Source: a virus. Taken from it: DNA of 64,000 bases. Position 1 is the first letter of the stretch, and each line of letters starts with the position of its first letter. The notes below the pieces were generated by a model. That model made no database searches. It saw only the letters and a list, made by a program, of their open reading frames with translations, and was not told the origin of the DNA. Where the stretch lies: IMG/VR virus record IMGVR_UViG_3300035157_001159, positions 1 to 64,000 of that record; one strand, given 5' to 3'. Position numbers and translations under genes: made by a program. Shown here in pieces: positions 12,727 through 61,070 of this stretch.

Positions 12727-12757
12727 CATCGAGGTGAGCAATTCCTCACCTATCAAT

Positions 12758-12855
12758 ACCCTCTAACCGAGATCATGGGGGTTACATCTCTCATATCCAC
12801 TAGTGAAGGGATTAGTGGAAATACCGTATCGCTCTACCCTTTGAGCCCTACTAAA
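12758..12855 (+). ncRNA. PhotoRC-II-like cis-regulatory RNA in the psbA 5' leader
   Basis: Stems ACCCTC/GGGGGT, CCACTAGT/ATTAGTGG and GCTC/GAGC with loop pairings GAGAT/ATCTC and AGGG/CCCT (two pseudoknots); location fits the known cyanophage psbA motif. Confidence 0.75.
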
Positions 12856-60287: not shown

Positions 60288-60358
60288 CCAAAATCGAACT
60301 TTTTTTCCCATATATCCCGATAAAAAATCGGGGTATTTTTTTGCTCTGTAGGGTCGAT
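60287..60358 (+). repeat. structured intergenic repeat, copy B
   Basis: ACCAAAATC..., stem ATATCCCGAT/ATCGGGGTAT, then TCTGTAGGGTCGAT. Confidence 0.8.
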
Positions 60359-60379
60359 GTAACAAAATTACATATTAAT

Positions 60380-60408
60380 TTGACTAAATAGTTGAAATGT
60401 GTTAGTAT
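60380..60408 (+). promoter_or_regulatory. sigma70-type promoter
   Basis: TTGACT, 17 nt, extended -10 TGtTAGTAT; CTAAATA overlapping. Confidence 0.75.
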
Positions 60409-60416
60409 TAACACAA

Positions 60417-60461
60417 CGTTCATCTCCCGTATAGGAGACGCAAGTAAGCCGACTCGGAACG
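60417..60461 (+). ncRNA. glutamine-riboswitch-like aptamer 1
   Basis: P1 CGTTC/GAACG, A, P2 TCTCC/GGAGA, CGCAAGTA; starts just after the predicted TSS; upstream of a DUF4278-like gene. Confidence 0.72.
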
Positions 60462-60464
60462 GAT

Positions 60465-60655
60465 CGTTCATCTCATGAACATTTTATTCGCTGCTGTTAC
60501 ATCAACCGCATTTACAGGTCTTTTGACTTGTGAACAAGCGAATGGTATTATCGAAAAGATAAAACCATCTTTTAGCCATAGATCTGAGATTGTGCAAATG
60601 ATCAAGGATTCTAGTGAAGAATGTGATTGGGACGCAAAAGCCGACTAAAGGAACG
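60465..60655 (+). ncRNA. glutamine-riboswitch-like aptamer 2, split by an ORF
   Basis: CGTTCATCTCA ... TGGGACGCAAAAGCCGACTAAAGGAACG. Confidence 0.6.
60475..60648 (+). CDS. 57-aa ORF nested in aptamer 2 (not in ORF track)
   Basis: MNILFAAVTSTAFTGLLTCEQANG...EECDWDAKAD. Confidence 0.65.
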   Translation: MNILFAAVTSTAFTGLLTCEQANGIIEKIKPSFSHRSEIVQMIKDSSEECDWDAKAD

Positions 60656-60688
60656 GATTAAAAACCCTACTACTTTGGAGTAAAGCCA

Positions 60689-60829
60689 ATGGCAAAAGTC
60701 ACTTACCGTGGAAATTCTTACGATACCGAAGAGTATCGTGAAATGCTCATAGCAGAGCATAACAAGAACAGAAACTACGATTTAATGTATCGTGGTCTTA
60801 AAGTTTCTAAGAAACTTCATGCTGTTTAG
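60689..60829 (+). CDS. DUF4278-like small protein, 46 aa (not in ORF track)
   Basis: MAKVTYRGNSY...LMYRGLKV (two YRG motifs); GGAG SD. Confidence 0.82.
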   Translation: MAKVTYRGNSYDTEEYREMLIAEHNKNRNYDLMYRGLKVSKKLHAV

Positions 60830-60852
60830 TTCCACAGAACAAAAAGAAAGAG

Positions 60853-60888
60853 GAAGGGGTTGAACCCCTTCTTTTTTTATGTTATAAT
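60853..60888 (+). terminator. intrinsic terminator overlapping the next sigma70 promoter
   Basis: GAAGGGG-TTGAA-CCCCTTC plus T-run; TTGAAC, 17 nt, TGtTATAAT. Confidence 0.8.
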
Positions 60889-60908
60889 ATATTCAAATTA
60901 ATTTAATT

Positions 60909-61070
60909 ATGGCAAGTAGAGGAAAACGATTAATTAAGTTGTTGGAGGGATTAGTTGCTCAGGAACATCTTTATACAGATGAAGAATTGAAGTCTATGAA
61001 AAGTCAAATAAGGGTACTTAAAGAAGAACTTGCTATTATTGACAATAAGTTATCAAAGGGATTTAAATGA
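60909..61070 (+). CDS. 53-aa helical hypothetical protein (not in ORF track)
   Basis: MASRGKRLIKLLEGLVAQEHLY...SKGFK; ATGA overlap with thyX. Confidence 0.72.
   Translation: MASRGKRLIKLLEGLVAQEHLYTDEELKSMKSQIRVLKEELAIIDNKLSKGFK

Follow-up and report, generated by a model that had tools for sequence, protein, structure and literature searches.

Organisation of the leader

The DNA analysed here, called the window, comprises the first 64,000 nucleotides (nt) of IMG/VR virus record IMGVR_UViG_3300035157_001159, an 88,617-base viral contig with an estimated completeness of 35%. At 60417–60656 it carries a leader composed of two consecutive glutamine-riboswitch copies, followed by a small DUF4278-like gene. 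Copy 1 contains a short hairpin P2. In copy 2, the two strands of the corresponding stem are separated by 152 nt, and this loop harbors a 57-codon open reading frame (ORF), hereafter the nested gene. The ORF and the aptamer share bases at both ends: the 5' stem strand ends with the A of the start codon (60475–60477), and the C-terminus W-D-A-K-A-D-stop is read entirely from the 3' half of copy 2. With a probability of roughly 70%, this leader is one glutamine sensor built from two copies, in which the P2 stem of copy 2 closes around a real protein gene.

The closest DNA matches of the region 60300–60950 are T4-like myoviruses of Prochlorococcus and Synechococcus, with 99 phage records, six of which cover at least 80% of the query. 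The features of the leader and its surroundings are collected in Table 1. A preliminary description of this DNA had listed a promoter, the two copies, their linker, the ORF and a terminator, and all its sequence statements are correct in position.

Table 1 Features of the glutamine-riboswitch leader and adjacent elements (window coordinates; SD, Shine–Dalgarno sequence)
Feature	Position	Strand	Basis
Terminator-like hairpin of the upstream unit (5' boundary)	60312–60336	+	10-pair stem plus T run
Sigma-70-like promoter: TTGACT (60380–60385), 17 nt, TAGTAT (60403–60408), with TG	60380–60408	+	9/12 consensus match
CGUUCA of copy 1; CGUUC, predicted 5' strand of the outer helix (partner 60651–60655)	60417–60422	+	
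Hairpin P2 of copy 1 (UCUCC 60423–60427, CGUAUA, GGAGA 60434–60438), short form without gene	60423–60438	+	Rfam alignment
3' half of copy 1: groove strand CGC 60439–60441, core, GGAACG 60456–60461; C60441, predicted linchpin partner of G60656; GAACG 60457–60461, predicted inner hairpin with 60465–60469	60439–60461	+	
Linker GAU (GAT); G60462, predicted linchpin partner of C60635	60462–60464	+	
5' half of copy 2: CGUUCA 60465–60470 plus 5' stem strand UCUCA 60471–60475	60465–60475	+	
Nested 57-codon gene (phrog_504) with Cys19 and Cys50; ends predicted to pair and lengthen the stem	60475–60648	+	
3' half of copy 2: 3' stem strand UGGGA 60628–60632, then CGCAAAAGCCGACTAAAGGAACG 60633–60655, with groove strand CGC 60633–60635, nested stop UAA 60646–60648 in the core, and GGAACG 60650–60655	60628–60655	+	
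G following the last GGAACG; predicted to form a linchpin pair with C60441	60656	+	
Core hexamer CUAAAG, including the nested stop; candidate anti-SD versus 60673–60678	60645–60650	+	
CUUUGG plus SD GGAG (60677–60680) of the DUF4278-like gene	60673–60680	+	
DUF4278-like (IF17-like) gene, 46 codons, presumed regulated gene	60689–60829	+	Pfam, PHROG
Intrinsic-terminator-like hairpin (60855–60870) plus T run, end of the unit	60853–60878	+	

Relationship of the two copies to known glutamine aptamers

Copy 1 (60415–60465) matches the Rfam family Glutamine (RF01739) with 35.3 bits, at a gathering score of 35, and gives 26.6 bits with Glutamine-II (RF01704), under the gathering score of 33. This double resemblance agrees with the proposed mixture of type I and type II features in the core. 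The Rfam search suggested in the preliminary description was thus successful for copy 1, whereas full-length copy 2 was unmatched. Among the orthologues of copy 2 that have a short loop, three pass the RF01739 threshold with 40.3, 37.1 and 35.4 bits and three lie just under it with 33.9, 33.5 and 33.3 bits; in addition, the short-form copy 2 of one relative (locus L083) reaches the threshold of RF01704 (33.2 bits versus 33). RF01739 finds nothing in phages P-HM1 and P-SSM4, in which both copies are split by a gene.

The predicted arrangement of two glutamine-aptamer copies in a single leader ahead of a DUF4278-like gene is borne out by the RF01739 match of copy 1 together with Pfam and PHROG matches of the gene. 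It is in line with previous results, in which glnA aptamers were found in tandem (PMC2864571) and glutamine aptamers were linked to DUF4278 genes (PMC6212724); both statements, already cited in the preliminary description, are made in these papers. As judged from sequence, hairpin covariation and gene context, the leader element is a glutamine riboswitch. It differs from both described types in its embedded gene, its apparent strand swap and a core that mixes both types.

Four layouts among related leaders

Viral contigs were scanned with a 15-base junction, which returned at least 120 loci; all counts below are among the matches listed. The scan loci, four phage records and the window gave 124 parsed junctions. 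Six of them (L005, L022, L042, L051, L068 and L098) were dropped as chance 15-mer matches in unrelated DNA, and 118 were kept. The hairpin loops of these 118 loci measure either 11–43 or 138–225 nt, with none in between, so that each copy can be called short or long. Among the 111 complete loci, 40 are short/long (copy 1/copy 2), the class of the window, 39 are short/short, 20 are long/short and 12 are long/long. Phage P-SSM2 has the same layout as the window, P-HM1 and P-SSM4 carry a gene in each of the two hairpins, and in S-PM2 both copies are short-looped, 3 nt apart, and followed by the same small gene as in the window. The linker between the copies measures 3–5 nt in 130/130 cases, 84 of which come from loci fetched by a pattern without linker, and its first base is G in 129.

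The exact 3' half of copy 2 occurs in only two genome_contigs records, a Prochlorococcus single-cell contig (L128, 189,106 bases) and a 3.8-kb contig of a metagenome-assembled genome. The former presumably stems from a phage that was infecting the sequenced cell. This exact-match scan of cellular genomes does not show that hosts lack nested genes, because host forms differ in sequence. Two loci depart from the common arrangement: L117 has two separate double sensors about 500 nt apart, and the ORF downstream of the double sensor of L040 has 28 codons and does not resemble DUF4278.

Closure of the P2 stem around the gene

To evaluate the stem of split copy 2, the 5 nt that follow CGTTCA were compared with the 5 nt that precede CGCA. 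In 46 unique copies, 4.91 of the five positions pair on average, versus 3.64 with shuffled partners, and none of 5000 shuffles reaches the native value. Each of the three variable stem positions shows three to six base combinations that represent three to four standard pair types. A pair count on the alignment is limited to three of the five stem pairs, because MAFFT split the columns of the 5' strand, and the rest were counted by script; all three countable pairs are 100% paired and have double-sided changes. The short-form P2 behaves similarly, with double-sided changes in 5/5 pairs of copy 1 and 4/5 of copy 2. The flanking CGUUC and GGAACG are invariant in the 46 aligned split copies. Among the expectations raised in the preliminary description, covariation of P2 and conservation of the nested frame are therefore present in the relatives, whereas P1 is invariant and shows no covariation.

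Stem and coding sequence appear to be adapted to each other. The residue before D-A-K-A-D (I, W, K or E) tracks the stem sequence, with no visible protein need. The minimum free energy (MFE) fold of 60465–60655 includes P1 and P2 at no added cost and has a z score of −3.66. In copy 2, the predicted stem probability is 0.83 with the native interior and 0.17 with dinucleotide-shuffled interiors, and the native value is higher in 54/54 unique copies; the corresponding values for copy 1 are 0.56 and 0.25, with the native higher in 25/32. Moreover, the first and last 22 nt of the ORF pair better with each other than with the ends from other contigs (−8.9 versus −6.6 kcal/mol in copy 2, −10.4 versus −7.8 kcal/mol in copy 1; 0/5000 permutations reach the native mean), so the coding ends extend the stem. 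This extension may explain part of the protein pattern, namely a hydrophobic start and a Lys/Glu-rich end.

A circularly permuted aptamer, in which the linker joins the 3' half of copy 1 to the 5' half of copy 2 and the two neighbouring stem strands close the structure, was also considered and rejected, as these strands pair at 3.09 of five positions versus 4.91 across the gene.

These data bear directly on the idea that copy 2 is a relic, broken by a small selfish gene, with copy 1 alone sensing the ligand and the half-sites decaying. Such a history would be consistent with the failure of Rfam to detect copy 2, with the 39/111 complete relatives without any insert, and with the occurrence of one gene family in copy 1 or copy 2 depending on the contig (42% identity, E = 1e-18), like a moving cassette. 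However, decaying half-sites would hardly keep CGUUC and GGAACG invariant in 46 split copies with a stem that covaries across the gene, nor would they be expected to have coding ends co-evolved to pair and native interiors that favour closure in 54/54 copies. In addition, both copies are split yet conserved in 12/111 loci, including P-HM1 and P-SSM4. We therefore regard a relic as very improbable.

The nested gene and its protein

All 88 long loops among the loci listed (33 in copy 1, 55 in copy 2) contain an ATG-initiated ORF, although in a shuffled loop the probability that a given frame is open is only 0.026. The ATG lies +9 to +13 nt from the C of CGTTCA in 86/88, which places it within the 5' stem strand or immediately behind it; only L031, a probable frameshift, and L038, which has its own AGGAGG, deviate. 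The genes comprise 49–69 codons, apart from four longer read-through or frameshifted forms. Within length groups, the median dN/dS is 0.14–0.25 and third codon positions hold 45–57% of the differences. Exactly two cysteines are present in 85/86 unique nested peptides, the exception being L031. When 60 of the 82 unique nested proteins are aligned (A4), M1, C19 and C50 are the sole invariant columns, while the families share 13–63% identity. This alignment omits three read-through forms (L033, L055, L079) as well as 19 of the 30 copy-1 proteins; L031 was kept out of the list feeding it and retained in the ORF and cysteine counts. Taken together, the conservation pattern indicates that the nested ORF is a real protein gene under purifying selection. 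The 57-codon ORF that had been described inside the second aptamer, which begins within the 5' stem strand and runs with its final codons and stop into the core, is thus well supported by the open frames (88/88) and by dN/dS.

The nested protein of the window matches phrog_504 (E = 8.7e-9) and is the single phrog_504 copy in the record. Among the 60 aligned proteins, 37 match phrog_504, five phrog_13397 and five phrog_6471, and 13 are without match. In the complete genomes of P-SSM2, P-HM1 and P-SSM4, phrog_504 matches occur at the nested position only, and no match was found in S-PM2 or in the complete viral contig G001 (the record behind L071, with a gene in copy 1 only). One nested family is found in copy 1 of some contigs and in copy 2 of others; therefore, inserts have moved between the two hairpins. 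In an AlphaFold2 model of the nested protein, the cysteines are predicted to lie where helix 1 begins and directly behind helix 2.

Three relatives have unusual nested genes. In copy 2 of L033, which holds a close relative of the window gene, the core is without the usual stop, and the ORF continues for 12 more codons until it meets a TAA overlapping the SD of the DUF4278-like gene. The nested gene in copy 2 of L038 begins 21 nt into the loop, with an AGGAGG 5 nt before its ATG. In copy 1 of L031, translation from an ATG at the usual place would give a family-like N-terminus before the frame soon closes, and this form may be a pseudogene or an assembly error.

The protein evidence is the main obstacle to viewing the 152-nt insert as an untranslated, structured expansion of the hairpin whose open frame is incidental. 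Frames open in 88/88 loops against a chance of 0.026 per frame, dN/dS of 0.14–0.25 together with the third-position bias, two cysteines invariant across families sharing 13–63% identity, and the AGGAGG 5 nt before the nested ATG of L038 would all be unexplained. What such an expansion would account for is the unusually stable interior (z −3.66), the ATG at 60475 without a clear SD, and the fact that the P-SSM2 RefSeq record NC_006883.2 leaves its nested phrog_504 ORF (L001, 772–921) unannotated. Among the alternatives considered in this work, it is the one to which we give the least credence.

The variety of inserts also raises the view that the half-sites are mainly recombination or RNA-processing sites around small-gene cassettes, comparable to T4-type promoter–stem-loop cassettes, rather than parts of a ligand sensor. 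Four layouts with either hairpin filled or empty, at least three PHROG families as inserts, one family at both positions and identical short repeats on both sides of each gene are features that cassette sites would produce. Stem covariation across the gene, linchpin covariation (see below), the Rfam-level match of the unsplit copies and the SD-masking platform are left unexplained, and we find a function in cassette exchange without sensing highly unlikely. Cassette exchange and sensing are compatible rather than exclusive.

Predicted strand exchange between the copies

In the glutamine-II structure, a long-range pair, here termed the linchpin, connects the third base of the groove strand CGC with the base after GGAACG, and type I has an equivalent (PMC6698751). 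In 100 unique leaders, the third groove base of copy 1 and the base after copy 2 form C:G in 67 and G:C in 33, with no exceptions. The base after copy 1 is always G, and the third groove base of copy 2 is C in 98/100 and A in two. The alignment of short/short leaders (A5) covers 33 of the 34 unique sequences, L113 being omitted; in it, the swapped partners pair in 33/33 for each of the two pairs, versus 20/33 for each of the canonical pairs. One of the swapped pairs has 13 double changes, and the other, corresponding to G60462:C60635, is G:C in 33/33. Both linchpin states occur with the same nested families, so the pattern is not a single clade effect.

Folding predictions point in the same direction. 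In nearest-neighbour calculations, the outer helix formed by the first CGUUC and the last GAACG has a probability of 0.81–0.88, versus at most 0.03 for the canonical P1. The outer helix is favoured in 104/105 leaders; in the window its probability is 0.94, and the MFE structure of the whole leader has the same fold. The two copies thus probably fold as one strand-swapped sensor with an outer helix, 60417–60421:60651–60655, spanning the gene, because the linchpin covaries only between the copy 1 strand and the base after copy 2.

The published view of such leaders is that of two independent tandem aptamers; 157 glutamine doublets were classed as pseudo-cooperative in a 2022 review of tandem riboswitches (PMC9481103), which also lists the tandem glycine riboswitch. 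Applied to the window, each aptamer would have its own P1 (60417–60421:60457–60461 and 60465–60469:60651–60655), the second would hold the gene, and the pair would act pseudo-cooperatively. Copy 1 by itself matches Rfam as a complete aptamer and can fold canonically during transcription before copy 2 exists, and both canonical linchpins would be C:G in the window. In the relatives, however, both canonical linchpins are mismatched (G.G and C.C) in 33/100 unique leaders, whereas the swapped pair is intact in 100/100, and the canonical P1 reaches a probability of at most 0.03 versus 0.81–0.88 for the outer helix. Moreover, the linker of 3–5 nt in 130/130 cases leaves no room for a separate expression platform; instead of one platform per aptamer, a single SD-masking platform is found after copy 2. 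We consider independent folding rather unlikely. The tandem aptamers of the preliminary description are thus retained as two copies 3 nt apart, whereas their independence is called into question by the swapped linchpin, the 3–5 nt linker and the folding of the outer helix.

The downstream gene and its expression platform

The gene at 60689–60829 matches Pfam DUF4278 (PF14105) with 21.6 bits (E = 2.8e-4), under the cut-off of 25.3, and is therefore called DUF4278-like. Its P-HM1 orthologue passes the cut-off with 28.8 bits, and both proteins belong to phrog_5049 (E = 2.7e-17 for the window gene and 7.9e-18 for the P-HM1 orthologue).

Two types of leader are found after copy 2. In the type represented by the window, the core hexamer CURAAG, which contains the nested stop, is complementary at 6/6 positions to a hexamer overlapping the SD in 60/67 unique leaders. 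A platform C occurs only with a core G (10/10), and a core C only with a platform G at full complementarity (7/8, the eighth pairing at 5/6 positions). The resulting helix, 60645–60650:60673–60678, is part of the MFE structure of 60633–60705 and has a pair probability of 0.39–0.54. When the platform is included in the fold of the window, the outer helix drops to 0.39 and the SD is 0.42 unpaired. The hexamer 60645–60650 is therefore a candidate anti-SD.

In the other type, CUCUUUA directly after GGAACG is complementary to UAAGGAG (27 unique leaders in the complementarity count). The SD is predicted to be fully masked, and when the 3' end of the sensor, including the linchpin base, is withdrawn, the unpaired probability rises from 0.00 to 0.36, in 31/31 leaders. 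ON switches that act by competition with a structure occluding the ribosome-binding site have been described for the gifB leader (PMC6212724) and for glutamine-II (PMC6698751), and the SD masking of this second type fits the gifB mechanism proposed in the former paper.

Predicted transcription signals and other RNA elements

The promoter-like site upstream of copy 1 is a consensus match alone, four such sites being present in the scan versus 2.5 expected, and the terminators were likewise called as consensus-type matches alone (hairpin plus T run). In relatives, a TATAAT box lies 7–8 nt ahead of the first CGTTCA. The segment 60287–60408 contains the terminator-like hairpin, an inverted repeat ATGTAA-N5-TTACAT and the promoter-like site, of which the hairpin and the promoter-like site were confirmed. 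A second promoter-like sequence (TTGACT, 17 nt, TATTAT; 10/12) is located within the nested gene at 60523–60551 on the + strand; given the same excess of four sites over 2.5 expected, it is probably due to chance.

Two further structured RNAs were detected. A PhotoRC-II RNA lies at 12746–12832 (+) of the window, with 53.9 bits versus a gathering score of 39. PhotoRC-II is a known cyanophage element associated with psbA. In P-SSM4, a manA RNA (L004, 215–400; 184 bits) is located just upstream of the split glutamine leader and overlaps the annotated coding sequence (CDS) PSSM4_169.1 (270–443), which is either a mis-called CDS or another gene that overlaps a structured RNA.

Discussion

Proposed mechanism

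We propose that the leader acts as one sensor in which the P1 strands are swapped. CGUUC 60417–60421 would pair with GAACG 60651–60655, while the inner GAACG 60457–60461 and CGUUC 60465–60469 would pair into a hairpin with the 3-nt linker as its cap. The helix of each copy would then be capped by the groove strand of the other through C60441:G60656 and C60635:G60462, and the fold would bind glutamine, as in type I and type II glutamine riboswitches. Ligand binding may stabilise the outer helix against the pairing 60645–60650:60673–60678 and thereby turn on translation of the IF17-like gene, as published for gifB (PMC6212724).

The embedded gene would add a second input. The sensor could close only after transcription has passed the nested gene and no ribosomes remain on it, and in the closed sensor the nested start codon would lie inside the stem. 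Nascent or unfolded RNA would thus be the main template for translation of the nested gene, and this translation and glutamine sensing would be mutually exclusive. Furthermore, a ribosome stopping at UAA 60646–60648 would cover the candidate anti-SD. As suggested in the preliminary description, translation of the nested gene and nitrogen sensing would probably compete on one RNA, because the start codon and the first codons sit in the stem and its extension.

A broader reading is possible, and we offer it as tentative. In this reading, one strand-swapped sensor would read glutamine plus ribosome occupancy and give reciprocal outputs, the Cys-pair protein being made from nascent or unfolded RNA and the IF17-like protein from the closed, glutamine-bound RNA. 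The coding sequence would be shaped both by the protein and by the stem, with hydrophobic start codons pairing with Lys/Glu end codons. The hairpins would serve as docking sites for cassettes, and cyanophages would swap small genes through them, bringing each under general metabolite control without a separate leader.

Several observations weigh against the single sensor closing around a gene. In the Rfam comparison, copy 1 barely reaches the RF01739 threshold, and copy 2 (60465–60655) gave no Rfam match in a cmscan of 60300–60950 at E values up to 10; the latter is expected, because the 152-nt loop exceeds what the covariance model allows. As regards the strand swap, the P1 strands CGUUC/GAACG are present twice and are invariant, so they provide no covariation; the linchpin covariation concerns one column pair with two states and may reflect few independent events; and all four linchpin bases of the window are C/G-compatible under either fold, for which reason the strand-swap argument is drawn from the relatives. 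The nested protein matches no Pfam family, its protein-atlas matches are only to unnamed viral clusters (0.84–0.87), and a homologue search returned 12 unnamed proteins. Its AlphaFold2 model is a two-helix hairpin (19–28 and 36–46) with a predicted local distance difference test (pLDDT) score of 66, that is, of moderate confidence. The ATG at 60475 is without a good SD, the nearest GGA lying 11 nt upstream, and RNAalifold found no clear shared structure inside the ORF (−5.7 and −6.3 kcal/mol for family alignments of 19 and 13 sequences). Finally, predicted SD masking is weak in the leader type of the window (unpaired 0.45 versus 0.40, with a rise in 10/68).

Relation to known systems

The phage leader resembles Glutamine-I (RF01739), represented by the Synechocystis gifB/IF17 leader (PMC6212724), in its CGUUC/GAACG helix, the variable hairpin after CGUUCA, the ACG(C/G)A groove strand, the GGAACG 3' strand and the DUF4278 gene downstream; the published ON-switch logic, in which a masked ribosome-binding site is freed, also fits the platforms observed here. 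In contrast to Glutamine-I, the variable hairpin of the phage form holds a whole protein gene of 49–69 codons, the copies are 3–5 nt apart and apparently swap P1 strands, the third helix is reduced, and part of the core is type II-like (CGCA). With Glutamine-II (Downstream-peptide, RF01704) the leader shares the CGC groove strand and the C:G linchpin to the base after GGAACG (PMC6698751), as well as marine picocyanobacteria as host group and a DUF4278-like partner gene. It differs in that copy 1 scores 26.6 bits, below the required 33, and that no counterpart of the type II pseudoknot hairpin around GGAACG was recognised in the phage leader; moreover, a nested gene and a double arrangement are absent from the description of Glutamine-II in the available part of PMC6698751.

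Parallels to other RNAs are more distant and each is partial, as the following three cases illustrate. The tandem glycine riboswitch has two homologous ligand domains, a short linker, one platform and inter-domain contacts, and its domains keep their own closing helices. The phage leader is similar in its two homologous domains, short linker, single platform and predicted inter-domain contacts, whereas its closing helices are apparently exchanged and it contains an embedded gene. In group I introns of T4-type phages, ORFs in peripheral loops encode homing endonucleases that move the intron. Here, too, a phage-borne gene that looks mobile sits in a loop of a structured RNA whose fold is kept; unlike the intron ORFs, the hosts are riboswitch hairpins, the products are Cys-pair proteins of 49–69 amino acids, and start and stop lie in or beside the aptamer core. 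In the maturation gene of phage MS2, the start region pairs with a distant downstream segment, which limits translation to nascent RNA, and no ligand is sensed. A comparable kinetic window may exist in the phage leader, where ribosomes would load only before the downstream segment is made or while it is unfolded; in contrast to MS2, the closing helix belongs to a metabolite sensor.

Implications

A riboswitch aptamer with a translated gene as its own hairpin is not known to us. In the literature searched, no description of a gene inside a glutamine aptamer or of a strand-swapped tandem was found, although the supplements of PMC2864571 and PMC6212724 (Table S1) may list phage examples; in the text of the tandem-riboswitch review (PMC9481103), the words nested, interlock and phage are absent. 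As covariance-model scans miss split forms, cyanophage glutamine riboswitches are under-counted.

If the proposed arrangement is true, it would represent a new kind of coupling between ligand sensing and translation on one RNA, with a single stretch of sequence selected both as a protein and as a sensor stem. At least for the phage form, the strand swap, if right, revises the published notion that the members of a tandem glutamine riboswitch are independent units. The IF17-like protein, a relative of the host glutamine-synthetase inhibitor, and a family of small Cys-pair proteins would be under the control of nitrogen status during infection of the ocean's main phototrophs.

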